Shown piece after piece: positions 1,372 to 56,254 of a stretch of DNA of 64,000 bases (its first letter is position 1; the number at the start of each line of letters is the position of its first letter). The stretch comes from Octopus vulgaris (lineage: Eukaryota). The notes under the pieces are model-generated. The model was not told where the DNA came from and made no database searches. It was given only the letters and a program-made list of their open reading frames with translations. Where the stretch lies: assembly GCA_951406725.2 (NCBI GenBank), contig OX597817.1, forward strand, positions 82,274,001 to 82,338,000, read 5' to 3'. The position numbers and the translations under genes were made by a program.

Positions 1372-2544
1372 ATGTTTCAAAAAGAAAATAGAAACTACAC
1401 GTGGAAGAGGTATAGGGAAAGTAAGAAGAAAAGAGCGAAAATAAACATTGGATGTCAAAAGAAAAAATAAAGGCTTTTTATTGAAAAGTAACGATAAATA
1501 CATACAATTAGATGAACTAAGGTAGAATTAAGAGGAATAAAAGTCATTATTTGGAATTACTGTTTACTGGCTTTGAATGGGCACCGATTATCGAAGGTGT
1601 TGGGTCTACTAGTCCCTGAGTAAAAATATTATATGTAAGGGAGGTAAGTCGTTCTGGATGTGGTGCAGTTAGGGTAGATATAATACCGTAATAAGAATGC
1701 TGTATGGGATGTATGGGAGTTAGTGGTATTATGGGTAGTTTTCCGTATGATGTTATGTGTTCATGTTAAGTTGTAGGTGGAATTTATAGATGAAAGTTGC
1801 CTGTTTGTTCATTCTTTGCTGCACTGATGTGTTCTGTGAACATTGATAGAAGGGAAAAATTAGGAAGTCTGTATCTGTCTGTATTGTGGGTGGCGGATTT
1901 GTTATATGTGAAGGATGGTTCTTCGACGGAGTGATATTCCTGTTTGGCCAAAATATTAATTACCACATCCTAAGCAGGTAATGGCATAGATTAGATTTTC
2001 TGAGGCACAGATGAAATTTGATTCAATCTTATATATTTCACCTAGTTTAAAGTGGAATTCTATACCCTCCAAAAGGCGGGGCATGTGCCACAGTTAGGCC
2101 GACCGCATTCTTTCACTTTTGGTTCCGTTGTTAATGGATATAGCCTTGCGTTGGTTAATATTTTTTTCAATGATTTCTTATGGTCAGTAAACCATAAATC
2201 TGACAGAGGAACACACTATAAATTATATATATATATGAATAGCATTTTAAGTATTTAATAACATAGAGTTCAGTAGATGTATTCAGAAAATGTCACAGGA
2301 GTTGGGATCTTTCTTCCGAATTTCAGAATAAGATCTGATTATTTCGAAAATCAAAATTCGAGTAGTTTTGTCAATATGTGAGTGTGAGTGCGTGTGTTTG
2401 TGCATGTGTATGTGTGCGTGCGCGTGTGCGCGTGTATTTCTCTCTCTGTGTGTGTATGTGTATGTGTGTGTGTGTGTGTGTGTGTGCGTAAGTGTGAGTG
2501 TAATACACTTTCTGTACTAAAGAAAAAACTCAGATTAGCTGTTA

Positions 2545-4695: not shown

Positions 4696-5074
4696 TCTAA
4701 AAATTAACACAAACTAAATATTAACAGAAGCCTATCGGTTCTTCCTAATTCTTGATTCAACTAGCTTCTCACAAACACAGAAGCTTAAACTGTATATTAA
4801 CACCTGTACACCAATGATGATTGTGTATGAGGCGAGAACTTGACTTTCCCCGCATAACATAAAAAATTAATTATACCCAGTAACAAAATTAATTATATGT
4901 TCATGTAGTGAAGCGGAACGTCGAAAAATTACAATCTCTGCTGTAGTAAACACTCAATGATTACTAGACTGAGACATCGATTTAGTAATGATAAATACAT
5001 ATATTGAATAAGTTGTACTGAAAAAAGGTTAATAAATATCTCATTTTCTAATTAATCGCTTTATTGCAAGTAGA

Positions 5075-5520
5075 GACAAGTACAGCCTGGTTGATCAGCT
5101 GATGATCAGATGTCAGAAGACGTAGGATCCACCGAACAGAGATCTTCGTCATGCCAAGTTCATTGTGCAGAATATCCTGAACTCTCTCATACGGTATGTT
5201 AATAGTATTGACTATTTGATTTATAGTCAATCGCCTGTTATCCCTCGGTGGTGGCAATTGCAGGACGCCCAGACCTTGAGTCATGTTTAAGACTCTCCCT
5301 TTCCTTCTTAAATTTATCTGTTCAATTTGCGCTGCTGATAAAGATGAACTGTCATCTAATGTAGTAAGCATGTTAGCATGAACGTCCTTAGGGGCTAAAC
5401 CGTTTTTCTACTGGTACTTGATAATACCACGATGCCAGATTTTGTCCCTTTTCAAGAAAAGTCACTGCTAGTTACTTTTGAAGTCTTCTTCAAACAGTCA
5501 GATGTCAGTTTACGTATTTT
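5075..5520 (-). mobile_element. mariner transposase N-terminal (HTH) remnant
   Basis: DKIWHRGIIKY..GLAPKDVHANMLTTL...DNRRLTINQIVNTINIPYERVQDILHNELGMTKISVRWILRLLT (WVPRLL-like motif); stops and frameshifts. Confidence 0.85.
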
Positions 5521-5629
5521 GTGTCTGATTAGTATTTGCGACGGGAGATCATCGCTACCATCTCTAGCCTTACGTGATACACACGGATTCAAGTTTCTGG
5601 GTGGCTACACGTCTTCAGTGTTACCTTTC

Positions 5630-5775
5630 GTTAGCCAACTGGAAGAGATGTCTTCCTGGGACTATAAACGTCAGTAGCACTGTCCTGTATAGGACGCCAC
5701 ACTTGGTTAGCAATTAATTGTTATGATTCCGTATTGCTGCTGTTTATATCTCGCTCAGAGATTTAATATAGTATA
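5630..5775 (+). mobile_element. diverged fragment of the retrozyme-like family at 11744 and 20514
   Basis: TAGCCAACTGGAAGAGATGTCTTCCTGGGACTATAA...TGGTTAGC...CTGTTTATATCTCGCTCAGAGATTTA ending in TATA resembles the 3' part of 11859-12013. Confidence 0.55.
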
Positions 5776-11743: not shown

Positions 11744-12013
11744 AGTATATCTGCCATCTAAATATGGTTAACCACTAAGGATGGATGTTACTGTAGCTTG
11801 TAGCCCCAGGAGAACATCTTCTCCAGCGGGCTATTGACACACTTTCTGTTCCCTATCGGTGTGTCAATAGCCAGCTGGAGAAGATGTTCTCCTGGGGCTA
11901 CAAGCTACACTAACATCCACCCTTAATGGTTAGCCATATTTAGATGGCAAATATACTTCACATTGTCGTGCAGTTAACTGTCTATACCTTGTTCAGAGAT
12001 TTATCATTGCTTA
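11744..12013 (+). mobile_element. fold-back copy of retrozyme-like family A (hammerhead portion not included)
   Basis: Arms 11744-11842 and 11859-11957 are reverse complements; sequence matches 20789-20942; TA tracts on both sides. Confidence 0.85.
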
Positions 12014-12032
12014 TATATATATGTACTTACAT

Positions 12033-12308
12033 ATAAGAAACCAAAGAGTACGTACGCCGGCAAATGTATATAAAAAGGAATGCAAAAATGGGACAAGAAC
12101 ACAAAACATCCTGACAGTTGATACAAAAAAGGGACAAGAAAAACAAGGACGGATCATTCGAGTATAACCAGCCGAAATTGCAAAGATAATCTGGAACTCG
12201 ACTGAGGAAAGAAAACTTCGAATGACCCATCCTTGTTTTTTTTTTGTTCCTTCTTTTTTTGTATCATCGGTCTGGATGTTTTTGCGTTATTGTCCCATTT
12301 TTGTATTC

Positions 12309-20513: not shown

Positions 20514-20942
20514 GTGTTTAGTGGTTAGCCATATTTAGATGGCAAATATACTTCACATTGTCGTGCAGTTACTGTCTATACCTCGTTCGGAGATTTATTA
20601 TTGCTTGTATACACTTTTTCAAGATCAGTGAGGAAAAGTCACTGGAAAAAGGATATATGTATTTACATTGGGACCCTTCCATCGAAAACCGGTGACTGTC
20701 GTGCGCTGATGACGGGTCAATACCCAGAAACTGCAGTCCGTGCGGATCACTTAGGTTGACGAGGGAAGGATGACCTCCCTTTGCAAATACTGATAGGGCA
20801 CAGAAAGTGTGTCAATAGCCAACTGGAGCTACAAGCTACAGTAATATCCACCCTTGGTGTTTAGTCATATTTAGATGGCAAATATACTTCACATTGTCGT
20901 GCAGTTACTGTCTATACCTCGTTCAGAGATTTATTATTTCTT
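20514..20942 (+). mobile_element. retrozyme-like element family A: ~1.25 tandem units of a ~336-353-nt monomer in a TA tract
   Basis: ATATTTAGATGGCAAATATACTTCACATTGTCGTGCAGTTACTGTCTATACCTCGTTC occurs at 20531 and again at 20867 (period 336); contains a hammerhead; no ORF. Confidence 0.8.
20692..20750 (+). ncRNA. Type I hammerhead ribozyme (palindromic stem III)
   Basis: Stem I UCGUGCG/CGUGCGG plus GUGA/UCAC; CUGAUGA 20706-20712; stem II (C)GGGU[CAAU]ACCC(A); GAAA 20727-20730; C[UGCA]GUC with cleavage predicted after 20738. Confidence 0.8.
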
Positions 20943-22050: not shown

Positions 22051-22247
22051 TTTATTTTAAGCAGCAGAAAATTCAACAAAATCTGTTACTCTGAGTTTCT
22101 CGTTAAACTGTCTGATGAACGGCAACGAGAAACTCAGAGTAACAGATTTTGTTGAATTTTCTGCTGCTTAAAATAAAGCATATTACTCTACCACTGGTAT
22201 TTGAGTACTCTTTTTTCCACCTTGTTTCACATTTATGTGTTTACTCC

Positions 22248-29330: not shown

Positions 29331-30072
29331 AAATACTAATGAATCATTTTCAGAGACGACTACTCTATATTTTCTCTTTCATCGCTGTATATCTCGAGGT
29401 TCAGTTTATCCGAATGATTTGTCATTGCATAATTATTCGATCACACAACAAATTTTTAGTTCTATCCTACCCACAACCCTTTACAAATAGCTTGTCGATA
29501 AGGGACAAAAGAAAGTAATGCATTCAAATAGACTTTAAGTATTTCATGACAAAAGTTGGTTAAATTTGCCGAAAAAAGAGAAATTATTTTGAGTAATTTA
29601 TTATTAACTTACATCGAATTTCCGTATACAGCATGACAAATTATAAATGCCTCTTATAGCAACTTTAGTTTGCATTACACGAAAAGAGTAGGTTTAAACG
29701 CAATAATAAAGGAAAATCTTTTGGCATTTACGATGCAAGACTACACATATCAACTATAAACAGTTCTACTTGACTTCATATCGGAAAAATTGCTTATTAT
29801 ATTGCTCTGGCATATTTAACATAATTTCGCTTTCATGAGGCGATATCTTCTATTTTCAAGGCAAGCTGAAATAAATAATCATACGTATATTTTTTGAGAG
29901 AATTAACAATGATACTCATGCAACACATTCCGAATTCAATCTTACTGTGTTCCATACACATTCACTTGCGCGCACACATACGCACACACAAACATGTATG
30001 TATGTATGTATGTATGTATGTATGTATGTATGTATGTATGTATGTATGTATGTATGTATGTACGTATGTATA

Positions 30073-31704
30073 CAGTTGCGGCCAAAATGTTCAGAACGGC
30101 ATTGTTTTCGCCAGAAGAGTAGATATAAGTTTTTATCAAAGTTGTTTTATATTCTATAATTTTCACAGACAATAAATACAATATTAATTGTTATTGTCTG
30201 CGATTTTGGTGTAATTTGAGAGGATAATACAAAAGTTATGGATGATTTAGTGATTTACTGCAAAACCTATGGCGGCCAAAATTATCAGAACGGTTGCTTT
30301 TACTCCGTGTTTTAGTATATTTAACCGGCGAACTCTAATGTTTTGAATTTGTTTACGTGATGGTTCGTTTACTAAACATTAGTAAGAATATCTGCAGTGT
30401 ACTTTGTTAATATAATACCACTTACTCCGTTACCAATTCGTCAGCAGATTATTAAGCTTCGAAAGAAGGATAATTTAAGTATTGGGTCTATTGCTAATAT
30501 TGTTAACAAGTCAAAAAGTGTTGCTCACGGTATTCTTAAGGTCTTCGATAATTGTGGTTCGTGTGAAACAAGAAAGTCTACAGGTAGGCCAAGAAAAACG
30601 ACCAAGAGAGAAGATTGTGCTATGGTAAAGTTGGTTAAAAAGGACAGATTTAAAACTGCTGCTGCTGTTTCTTGGGAAATGAGCATTGTACTGAAGAAAA
30701 CGTTATCTCGAAAAACTGTGTCTCATCGTTTAGTTGAACATAACCTACAAGCAAGATCACCTGTAGTGAAGCCACTGATCAGCTCCAAAAATAAAAAAAA
30801 ACTGTCGTCTTACCTTTGCAACTGAACAGGTGTTGTGGTCTCAAGAAAAATGGCAAACGGTGCATTTCAGTGATGAATCTAAGTTTATGTTATTTGGCTC
30901 AGATGGGAAAAGGTACGTTCGTTGAAACGTAGGTGAAAAATTGTCGCCTGAATGCCTTAAGACTAGTGTTAAATTCGGTGGAGGAAGTGTCATGGTTTGG
31001 GGGATGATATCTGGAGATGGTGTGGGCTCTTTGGTGCGATTACACGGAAAGGTAAATACAGAAGTTTATAAACAACTTATAAAAGATCATGTCTTGCCTG
31101 TGCTGAGAAATTCAACTAAGCGACCACCCATATTCATGCAGGACATGCCCCATGTCACAAGGCTAAGGTGGTCATGAACTTACTCAACGCTGAAAAGGTT
31201 ATTATTATGGATTGGCCTGCTCAAAGCCCAGATCTCAATCCTATTGAAAATGTGTAGAATATTCTAGGAGAACGCTCGAAAGCCAGAAATCCTAAAACAA
31301 CCGAGCAATTATGGAATGCCTTTCAGGAAGAATGGAATAAGATCACCTAGCAAGAAATTGAAAATTTAACTTCCCCATGCAGTCAAAGATGTCAGAGTGT
31401 GATTGAAGCTAAAGGGCTTCACACTAAATATTAAATAATTCCAGTATTCTCTGTCATTTTTGATTATTTTGTTATTTTTTCAACCGTTCTGATCATTTTG
31501 GCCGCAATGGGTTTTGCAGTAGATCACTAAATCATTCATAATTTTTGTATTATCCTCTCAAATTACACCAAAATCTCAGACAATAACAAGTAATATCGTA
31601 TTTATTGTCTGTGAAAATTATAGAACACAAGACAACATTGATAAAATCTTATATCTACTTTTCTGGCGAAAACAATGCCGTTCTGAACATTTTGGCCGCA
31701 ACTG
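30073..31704 (+). mobile_element. full-length Tc1-family DNA transposon with ~225-bp IR/DR termini
   Basis: TA|CAGTTGCGGCCAAAATGTTCAGAACGG ... CCGTTCTGAACATTTTGGCCGCAACTG|TA; inner direct repeats at about 30273-30293 and 31484-31504. Confidence 0.95.
30415..31434 (+). pseudogene. Tc1 transposase pseudogene
   Basis: GRPRKTT, VHFSDESKF, VKFGGGSVMVWG, FMQD, WPAQSPDLNPIEN, GLHTKY*. Probable ATG>ATA at 30415; frameshifts near 30795 and 31145; in-frame stops. Confidence 0.92.
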
Positions 31705-31705
31705 T

Positions 31706-31757
<52 letters not shown>

Positions 31758-31880: not shown

Positions 31881-33080
31881 CAGGGTGTGTAATGTATTGA
31901 GGGACATTCCTTTTCTGGGTCATTGCTGCATTTTCGTTTTGCTAACTCTGTATAATCTTTATTTCAGAAAATAATAATGGCTGACTCTCAGCTTACTCAA
32001 GAAAAGAAAAAAGCATGCTGTTATTGTGGTTATAAAGGCTGAGCATAACGATTTAGAAATATCTCGATTTCTAAAAGTTGCCAGCTCTTTCGTCTATAAA
32101 GTTTGTAAGGAGCTACAGACTGAAGATGGAAACGTATCACCAGTATCAAAGCGTAAATAGCATTCTAAATGATCTGAAATCATCAGAACACCTGAATTTA
32201 TCCCGCAAGTTCAACAGACCATTGATGATAATCCTAGAAAGTCCATGAGGTCAATTGCAAAAGATCTCCATGTGTCACAAGGAACAGTCAGAAATATTTT
32301 CCACAAAGACATCAGATATAAGTCTTATATGACAAGGAATGGTCGTCATATCTAAAAGGCCCTTAAACAAACTGAACAATCCAAACGAGAAACATTTCGA
32401 CCAAGATAAAAAAGTTAACAGAAGAAATGACAGATGGTTGTGTGCAAACCCTTCTGAAGTTCCAAGTGTAATGTATACAAAATTTCCTGCACCTGCCATA
32501 GTTTTAGGGGTTGTCAGCAATGAAGTGCATGTGATGCCTCCTTACTTCTTTCCACAAGGCATTAGAGTTAACTCTGACCCCTACATTGGGGTCCTGGAAA
32601 TAATTGTTAAGCCCTGGATAGACAGTGTATGCAATGTGTTTCAGGAAGACACGGCCTTATCACATATGGTTCTAGTAATACAGGAACGGATGGCTGAAAA
32701 TTTTCATGATCACATAACCCCTAACATTTGGCCTCCTAATTCCACAGATCTCAATACATTGGACAATTACATGCGGAGCTTTGTTGAGAGAGAGGTCAAT
32801 GAATATGCCCATAACACCAAAGATTCTTTGAAAGCTGCCATAGTCAGAGTAATGTCCAAAACGAACCAGGCGGACCTCTTGATTCGAGCATGTAGATGAT
32901 TTAAGTCTGATATATAAGCAGTTGTTGAAGTTGAAGGTGGCTTTATTGAATAACATTATAGAAAAGAAGGTTTATATTTATCCTCATAGCATTGTTTGAT
33001 CAATATAGTTATTATCTGTTATTATATATATGTTTTTTTTTATAAACATAAATCTATCCTCAAATATCTTACGTACCCTG
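31881..33080 (+). mobile_element. maT (DD37D) Tc1/mariner-superfamily transposon, decayed
   Basis: Imperfect TIRs CAGGGTGTGTAATGTATTGAGG / CCTCAAATATCTTACGTACCCTG enclosing a transposase. Confidence 0.88.
31977..32953 (+). pseudogene. DD37D transposase pseudogene
   Basis: MADSQLTQEKK..SMRSIAKDLHVS..NRRNDRW..FQED-(37 aa)-D in WPPNSTDLNTLD..GGFIE*; stops and deletions. Confidence 0.88.
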
Positions 33081-36260: not shown

Positions 36261-36301
<41 letters not shown>

Positions 36302-36466
36302 TAGTTATCGCCATACTAATATGGCATTCTTATAAAAATAAGAATAAAGCTGTCCGCTTATTAGCTCCATGAGGCCATCGCCTTAAGTTAGCTATTTGAT
36401 ACACAAACTGTATCCATATAACCTTCGAACAAGGGGGGTCAGTCGCTCCACACTACTTGACCGGCA

Positions 36467-36508
36467 GCTACAGACGCGTTTCGGGGTATTGCCCCTTTTC
36501 AATGCAGC
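36467..36508 (-). ncRNA. Type I hammerhead, U3-A8 core variant (mirror copy)
   Basis: Exact reverse complement of 36795-36836. Confidence 0.8.
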
Positions 36509-36794
36509 GTAGCCAGACCAGTAGGTGTCGCTTCTGACAATCTCTGTTCGAAGGTTTTATTTACCTAGCTTCGGTGGAATACATCCACTTGTTTTCAATA
36601 ATAGAAATATTAAAATTACTAAGTCTCTCTAAAAGAGAACAACGGCAGCGTTTCCGGAAAATAATAGTTATCGCCATACTAATATGGCATTCTTATAAAA
36701 ATAAGAATAAAGCTGTCCGCCTATTCCACCGAAGCTAGGTAAATAAAACCTTCGAACAGAGATTGTCAGAAGCGACACTTACTGGTCTGGCTAC

Positions 36795-36836
36795 GCTGCA
36801 TTGAAAAGGGGCAATACCCCGAAACGCGTCTGTAGC
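36795..36836 (+). ncRNA. Type I hammerhead, U3-A8 core variant
   Basis: GCUGCA/UGUAGC stem I; UUGAAAA 36801-36807; GGGG[CAAUA]CCCC; GAAA 36821-36824; palindromic ACGCGU; GUC triplet ending at 36830. Confidence 0.8.
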
Positions 36837-37061
36837 TGCCGGTCAAGTAGTGTGGAGCGACTGACCTCCTTGTTCGAAGGTTATATGGATACAGTTTGTG
36901 TATCAAATAGCTAACTTAAGGCGATGGCCTCATGGAGCTAATAAGCGGACAGCTTTATTCTTATTTTTATAATAATGCCATATTAGTATGGCGATAACTA
37001 TTATTTTCCGGAAACGCTGCCGTTGTTCTCTTTTAGAGAGACTTAGTAATTTTAATATTTC

Positions 37062-37413
<352 letters not shown>

Positions 37414-47486: not shown

Positions 47487-47827
47487 ATCTTATGGATTGT
47501 AAAGACAATCCTCTTGATGTACTCTTCTTGGTGGATACTTCCGGAAGTGTCGGTGCTTCCAATTTCAAGACAACTCTTCGATTTGTGAGCAGTTTTGTAG
47601 ATAGCTTTGAAATTGGTCCTAAACGAGTTCAAGTTGCAGTAACAACGTTTGATCATACTGTGATGCCAAAAATCAAACTTAACCAAATACACGATAAACA
47701 AGCTCTTAAAAACGCTATTAATAGTATCCCCCATCATGGCGGTATGACTGCAACTGATAAAGCCTTGGCGTTTGCCAGAACTCAAGCTTTCACTCGACAA
47801 AACGGTGGACGTACAAATGTCACGCAG
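47487..47827 (+). CDS. exon 2: vWA domain 1, N-terminal part (MIDAS DTSGS, T)
   Basis: Acceptor TTTTCTGCAG|AT, donor CAG|GTATGG; DCKDNPLDVLFLVDTSGSVG...GGMTATDKAL...GGRTNVTQ; 341 nt, phase 1-0. Confidence 0.95.
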
Positions 47828-55913: not shown

Positions 55914-56254
55914 TTATCCTAGACTGTAAAGACAATCCTCTTGATATACTCTTCTTGGTGGATTCATCCGGAAGTGTCGGTGCTGCCAATTTCAAGACAA
56001 CTCTTCGATTTGTGAGCAGTTTTGTTGATAGCTTTGAAATTAGTGCTAAACGAGTTCAAGTTGGAGTAACGACGTTTGATAACACTGTGATGCCAAAAAT
56101 TAAACTTAACCAAATATATAACAAACAAGCTCTTAAAAATGCAATTAATAATATTCCTTATCATGGCGGAGGAACTTCAACTGACAAAGTTTTGGCGTTT
56201 GCCAGAACAAAAGGTTTCTCTCCACAGAACGGTGGGCGTACAAATGTCACGCAG
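55914..56254 (+). CDS. exon 6: vWA domain 2, N-terminal part (MIDAS DSSGS, T)
   Basis: Acceptor TTTTCTGTAG|TT, donor CAG|GTAAGA; 341 nt like exon 2; about 82% amino-acid identity to it. Confidence 0.95.

Follow-up and report, generated by a model that had tools for sequence, protein, structure and literature searches.

Penelope-like insertion ends and a type I hammerhead motif in a dispersed, non-coding, retrozyme-like repeat family of Octopus vulgaris

The insertion and its surroundings

The window, that is, the whole stretch of 64,000 nucleotides of Octopus vulgaris DNA that was analyzed (contig OX597817.1, positions 82,274,001 to 82,338,000 of the forward strand), contains a repeat insertion with a single hammerhead motif, and its parts are listed in Table 1. 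The insertion has a GC content of 0.41, its longest stop-free frame is 80 codons and no ATG frame is longer than 37 codons, which agrees with a first-pass annotation of this DNA that had reported the absence of an open reading frame. The terminal direct repeat described in that annotation is also real, that is, 20518-20606 and 20854-20942 are 94% identical over 89 nt, and 84 of 93 positions match at a period of 336 compared with 20-30 at the neighboring periods. The period of 336 bp, however, results from a 17-nt deletion in this copy, so the monomer of about 350 nt that had been proposed describes the family (351-355 bp between ribozymes) and not the window copy itself. With one ribozyme and with repeats that have diverged by about 5%, the window copy is likely a decayed and inert insertion.

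Three family members had been claimed in the window. The one at 11744 belongs to the same family but carries no ribozyme, whereas that at 5630 belongs to a sister family. A repeat search of the whole window was dominated by microsatellites. Five other hammerhead-like motifs, at 22112-22150 (+), 12202-12235 (+), 10848 (-), 986 (+) and 25015 (-), are unrelated to the family in sequence and are probably the ends of other Penelope-like elements (PLEs). In addition, two exon-like stretches at 47489-47818 and 55916-56245 (both +) are 82% identical as protein and presumably resemble von Willebrand A domains, 252-nt inverted repeats of 91% identity at 30045-31732 surround a frame which we take to resemble a piece of Tc1/mariner transposase (similar pieces lie at 5048-5407 and 32333-32899), and nested inverted repeats of 128-148 nt and 98-99% identity at 36296-37067 are possibly another young two-armed insertion.

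Table 1. Features of the repeat insertion and of its relatives in the window
Feature	Position	Strand	Remark
Whole insertion	20514-20942	+	1.27 repeat units, subfamily A1, flanked by (TA)n runs
5' copy of the terminal direct repeat	20518-20606	+	Belongs to the end of the preceding unit; its 5' limit is a truncation point that varies
Rod extending stem I, 5' side	20675-20691	+
Type I hammerhead	20692-20750	+	The only ribozyme in 20514-20942
Stem I	20692-20705 with 20739-20750	+
Core CUGAUGA	20706-20712	+
Stem II	20714-20725	+	C.A mismatch at base
GAA	20727-20729	+
Palindromic stem III	20730-20737	+
C17	20738	+	Predicted cut 20738/20739
Rod, 3' side	20751-20769	+
17-nt deletion site	20827/20828	+	Relative to other copies
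3' repeat up to end site A	20854-20893	+	About +172 from the cut in intact copies; putative first reverse-transcription start
Optional tail of about 45 nt up to end site B	20894-20942	+	Putative second reverse-transcription start
Relative of the same family	11744-12012		5'-truncated, two back-to-back arms, no ribozyme; minus arm ends near site A, plus arm at site B
Sister family A2	5517-5770		About 70% identical; plus arm ends at site B, minus arm holds the decayed ribozyme
Decayed ribozyme of the A2 element	5586-5618	-

Ribozyme fold and repeat family

The type I hammerhead with a palindromic stem III was found as first annotated, with the core, GAA, palindrome and C17 in their given places, and the rod prolonging stem I, with CCUUCC (20675-20680) opposite GGAAGG (20764-20769), is likewise present and its pairs occur in the fold. 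Ribozymes of subfamily A1 (the labels A1 to A4 are coined here, A1 being that of the window copy) carry two G.U pairs in stem I besides the C.A mismatch that lies at the base of stem II. A 106-nt hammerhead piece taken alone folds at z -1.79 against shuffles, and its minimum-energy fold mispairs the proximal part of stem I. Rfam gave no hammerhead on the element at E<=10, and its matches in the window were microRNA look-alikes at simple repeats, none of them on the element.

Comparison of the copies supports the fold. Among 23 hand-picked A1 and A2 copies, 95.9% of the cells of 19 hammerhead pairs are standard pairs and double changes occur in seven of the 19, although, given the kinship of these copies, the counts do not represent independent events but a few lineage events. 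The covariation score was reached by none of 500 shuffles and slid controls were far lower. Stem I switches between G-C and A-U, and stem II does so within A1. In a hand count of the first 100 of 567 cores, strict stem III palindromes were found in 69 (UGCA in 37, UCGA in 20 and CCGG in 12), and the rest consisted of 14 UCGG, which self-pairs through G.U, and 17 other loops. Subfamily A4 has a fourth palindrome of six bases, shorter than the other three. Furthermore, the core pair C3-G8, present in the window copy, is replaced by U3-A8 in A3 and A4, in which the base of stem II is a G-C pair. Although their letters differ there, A1 and A2 both keep the rod, as judged by eye because the alignment is out of register in this part. 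Natural cut-to-cut monomers folded as circles were below their shuffles in six of six cases (z -1.9 to -4.2, 25 shuffles each), and the predicted circular monomers are 57-63% paired. On the strength of the covariation, the motif is a canonical type I hammerhead for which cleavage is predicted. Short palindromic stems III are described as working in the form of dimers (PMC4209133), and the same source describes the U3-A8 swap in hammerheads of the Schistosoma PLE Cercyon; unlike in Cercyon, the swap in octopus lies in canonical ribozymes of non-coding repeats, A3 and A4 being younger relatives.

The genome (2.8 Gb in 227 contigs) was searched for further copies, and from each search the 20-30 loci that came first or scored best were inspected. 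The unique middle of the unit as query gave 3329 first-look candidates, 40 of which were scored; the exact 33-nt core has 74 occurrences, spread over 30 contigs (control 0), one pair of which is spaced like a tandem; a degenerate version of the core pattern gave 567 matches (control 0); and a 14-mer of the A3/A4 core with U3-A8 has 512 matches against 11 in the control. Two ribozymes at a distance of 351-355 bp were found at seven loci besides the window copy among 60 loci (duplicates included), which gives a unit of about 354 bp, and all the units measured are 336-359 bp. Multi-unit arrays, whose search the first-pass annotation had advised, do exist: there are dimers, a 10.2-unit A3 array (G000:C4:13620759-13624377) with 99% identity between units, which ends at site A, and a trimer on C8 related to this array. 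A3 is about 80-85% like A1, and the A4 dimers are young, since they differ at only two of 150 positions. A trimer (L199, 3776-4760) and a dimer (L200, 2906-3631) have ribozyme cores changed at positions 3-4, and the trimer units are still about 97% alike despite the altered cores. Moreover, locus L024 (2046-2896; G000:C23:42842895-42843745) contains an array of about 17 x 50 bp inside a two-armed insertion, each 50-bp unit containing the 5' part of the hammerhead without a cut site.

At the level of sequence, the family falls within the definition of a non-LTR retrozyme, with cleavage and a circle as predicted properties. The first-pass annotation had read it in the same way, and this stands for the non-coding unit of about 355 nt, the covarying type I hammerhead and the self-paired circular fold predicted from it, but not for the window copy as a source of monomers, because with only one ribozyme this copy cannot release a monomer or give rise to a monomer circle. 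The family shares with the metazoan non-LTR retrozymes of mussel and axolotl (PMC7229834) a non-coding unit of 150-450 bp, a GC content below 50% (41% here), a canonical type I hammerhead, a range from monomers to multimers and a self-paired circular fold (predicted here), and with the amphibian retrozymes of the same paper a short palindromic stem III. It differs from the mussel and axolotl retrozymes in that circular RNA and cleavage were shown there and are predictions for the octopus family, and in that most octopus copies are dispersed insertions of 0.6-1.4 units with fixed ends of the PLE type and inverted arms.

Insertion ends, templates and the search for a coding partner

For the insertion ends, the first 30 loci with the exact core, out of 74, were surveyed; two of these 30 are arms of a single insertion. 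As many as 29 of the 30 copies end at one of two sites, namely 16 at site A, which lies about 172 nt downstream from the cut, and 13 at site B, about 45 nt further (about 217 nt), and one ends elsewhere. Their 5' ends are scattered from 38 to 314 nt upstream of the cut, and 12 of the 30 have an inverted truncated arm. Of eight clear two-armed cases, seven have one arm with its end at A and the other with its end at B. TA or CA repeats adjoin about 18 of the 30 copies, as judged by eye. Outside microsatellite targets, the flanks of L129, L158, L176 and L039 show what appear to be target-site duplications of about 9-12 bp, also by eye.

Partial tandems, inverted arms, an optional tail of 30-40 bp and (TA)n targets are described for PLEs (10.1101/2021.04.23.441226), and in a lizard PLE two internal reverse-transcription starts lie downstream of the hammerhead, with the tail spanning the interval between them (PMC11167929). 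The octopus family resembles Anolis Poseidon PAc (PMC11167929) in having two such putative starts that define an optional tail, and PLEs including Neptune and Naiad (10.1101/2021.04.23.441226) in its partial tandems, inverted truncated arms and AT-rich or (TA)n targets. It is unlike PLEs (PMC11167929, 10.1101/2021.04.23.441226) in having no reading frame, in its size (354 bp versus several kb) and in its hammerhead, which is canonical and not minimal. The combination of two fixed 3' ends, an optional tail, a variable 5' end, inverted arms and an AT-rich target suggests that the insertions were mobilized by a PLE. Judging from these ends, which the first-pass annotation did not mention, the family behaves like a non-autonomous PLE, and a PLE endonuclease and reverse transcriptase are the likely carrier class.

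As to the template, 52 loci are anchored at site A, and read-through was surveyed in the first 30 of them (these include three pairs that are each the arms of a single insertion, and one locus next to a gap). Eighteen of these 30 copies pass the cut, five are longer than one unit and none has its 5' end within 3 nt of the cut, where there is no pile-up. Since the 5' ends are not at the cut and 18 of 30 copies pass through it, the cleaved linear monomer would not be the usual template. The 5' and 3' repeats differ by 5.8% within a copy versus 8.5% between copies, with the lower value within the copy in 32 of the 34 that had enough overlap out of 43 copies longer than a unit, and a common non-CpG marker is concordant between the repeats in 30 of 37 copies (the samples were enriched by the use of L024 as query). 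This concordance fits a monomer circle or a uniform array equally. On the other side, L047 and L052 have unrelated flanks and match at 98% over 452 bp, yet the difference between the 5' and 3' repeats of each copy is 8.5% in L047 and 4.7% in L052, the discordant markers being common to both. Because these are independent insertions with common discordant repeats, some templates apparently held unlike units, and on this comparison the two copies contradict a monomer-circle template for themselves. L024 has a five-site variant in its 3' repeat, and L033 and L039 have it in their 5' repeat; the three loci lie within a 2-Mb stretch of C23. The unlike units may come from an uncut mixed-tandem transcript, a mixed circle, template switching or gene conversion.

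Four sequencing runs may be RNA, although none is recorded as such; the contigs of each gave 75-355 matching records, and they include ribozyme letters of the A3/A4 type as loose ends, but contigs cannot show ends or circles, and one contig joint going back 347 nt is such as any tandem copy gives. Reads across the junction GUC/CGUGC, which had been suggested as a check, cannot test circularity because the junction is identical to the genomic sequence.

Mixed templates of this kind speak for a non-autonomous mini-PLE that has no circular stage, in which linear uncut tandem transcripts would be the sole template and the ribozyme would trim ends or act late. The discordant markers common to L047 and L052, the five-site variant lying 3' in one copy and 5' in two others, the 5' ends that do not pile up at the cut and the unprocessed RNA that is the main substrate of the lizard PLE (PMC11167929) all agree with it. 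We nevertheless regard it as rather unlikely, since the repeats agree at the common marker in most copies, a unit of 350-359 bp and a rod spanning the cut are kept across subfamilies only 70% alike, which a circle explains simply, and mussel repeats of similar size (350-390 bp) give abundant circles (PMC7229834). This alternative and the preferred reading, a PLE-inserted retrozyme family, overlap in part.

Coding PLEs are present in the genome, which has many open frames of 781 codons with reverse transcriptase and GIY-YIG matches; in the one scanned, GIY-YIG is above the Pfam cut-off and the reverse transcriptase just under it. A young PLE family with such a frame (L117, 663-3006 and 3' region, and L116) has at its 3' end a hammerhead-like motif of its own with a U3-A8 core and two alternative ends, and a fragment of a PLE endonuclease region, 54-64% identical to the 781-aa frame, lies in the window at 1863-2176 (-). 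Animal retrozymes have been proposed as PLE derivatives in a preprint (bioRxiv 10.64898/2026.07.22.740005), and the octopus family is like them in its proposed dependence on PLEs, its dispersed solo monomers and its rare multimers. The basis of that proposal, as presented there for vertebrates, insects and a coral, is co-occurrence and pseudo-LTR similarity, whereas here it is the insertion ends, and no parent pseudo-LTR was found in octopus: among 150 scored GIY-YIG loci, the 30 fetched and compared show no DNA likeness to the unit, nor do three longer stretches. Matches between the PLE-frame protein and the unit all had E>0.02, and an apparent likeness of the tail to the 781-aa PLE was rejected, as it was matched or beaten by 285-356 of 400 background windows.

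The first-pass annotation had itself named a pseudo-LTR attached to a coding PLE as the case against its reading, and no attached coding PLE was seen in the loci checked. That the unit is a solo or partial pseudo-LTR would account for its PLE ends, tail and ribozyme, it would agree with the relation of retrozymes to pseudo-LTRs (bioRxiv 10.64898/2026.07.22.740005), and the inspection covered the first or best 20-30 loci per search. It is very improbable, however, because other sequence was never shared upstream of the unit in 30 ribozyme-anchored and 30 end-anchored loci, where more unit, an inverted arm or an unshared flank is found instead, and no long frame of ordinary composition lies near the arrays. 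The 781-aa protein, compared with all fetched loci, matched five of the repeat family, and in the two inspected (L146 and L219) the PLE piece is at least 370 bp from the unit; L219 was accordingly rejected as a unit-PLE fusion, with about 370 bp of unrelated DNA between the unit and the downstream PLE piece. A satellite or an ordinary SINE with a chance ribozyme-like motif is scarcely credible, for although Rfam gave no hammerhead match and the A1 core decays at 4.5%, much like the rest (4.7-8.1%), such neutral decay is expected after insertion anyway, and double changes occur in stems I, II and III and in the core pair between subfamilies.

Proposed cycle and significance

In our judgment, the insertion is quite probably a decayed single-ribozyme copy of a dispersed, non-coding, 354-bp non-LTR retrozyme family that has a predicted dimer-dependent type I hammerhead and was likely inserted by PLE enzymes into TA-rich DNA. 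From the anatomy, covariation, ends and arrays observed, we infer cleavage, a circle and the enzyme in the following cycle. Tandem copies would be transcribed, neighboring ribozymes would pair via their stem III palindromes and cut out unit-length RNA, and this RNA would be ligated into a self-paired circle. A PLE enzyme would then start copying at site A or B, often from both cut target strands, and copying would proceed across the cut junction, covering 0.2 to 2 units or more. For most copies the template would likely be a monomer circle or else a multimer of uniform units, and some copies would likely derive from an uncut multimer whose units are unlike one another.

Known systems advise caution about the ribozyme step. 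Of nine frog retrozyme dimers, eight failed to cleave in vitro (bioRxiv 10.64898/2026.07.22.740005). By the rule of the same preprint, which asks for two consecutive ribozyme units, the window copy does not count as "active". The ribozyme of a lizard PLE needed protein, and cleavage was dispensable for insertion in vitro (PMC11167929). Earlier work has already described the class, size and dimer palindrome as well as the U3-A8 swap. A literature search, with thin coverage of subscription papers, repeat databases and supplements, gave no description of a cephalopod retrozyme; "ribozyme" and "retrozyme" are absent from the main text of an octopus repeat annotation, and a squid genome paper lists 235 hammerhead matches without detail.

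How animal retrozymes return to DNA and what role the PLE hammerhead plays are open questions in the field. Direct tests could draw on the family's natural ribozyme variants, its young dimers and its array, and the insertion ends link the family to PLE enzymes. More tentatively, and with slightly less than even confidence, the family may be a long-lived RNA-circle replicon, in which the successive waves A2, A1, A3 and A4 kept a circle of 350-359 nt while changing the core pair and the dimer palindrome, and around which a Penelope enzyme copies from two set starts, also using uncut mixed multimers. If this is true, the insertion record would supply evidence from the genome for the circular intermediate that has long been proposed in PLE-type transposition, as well as a way to count circle-born versus multimer-born copies.
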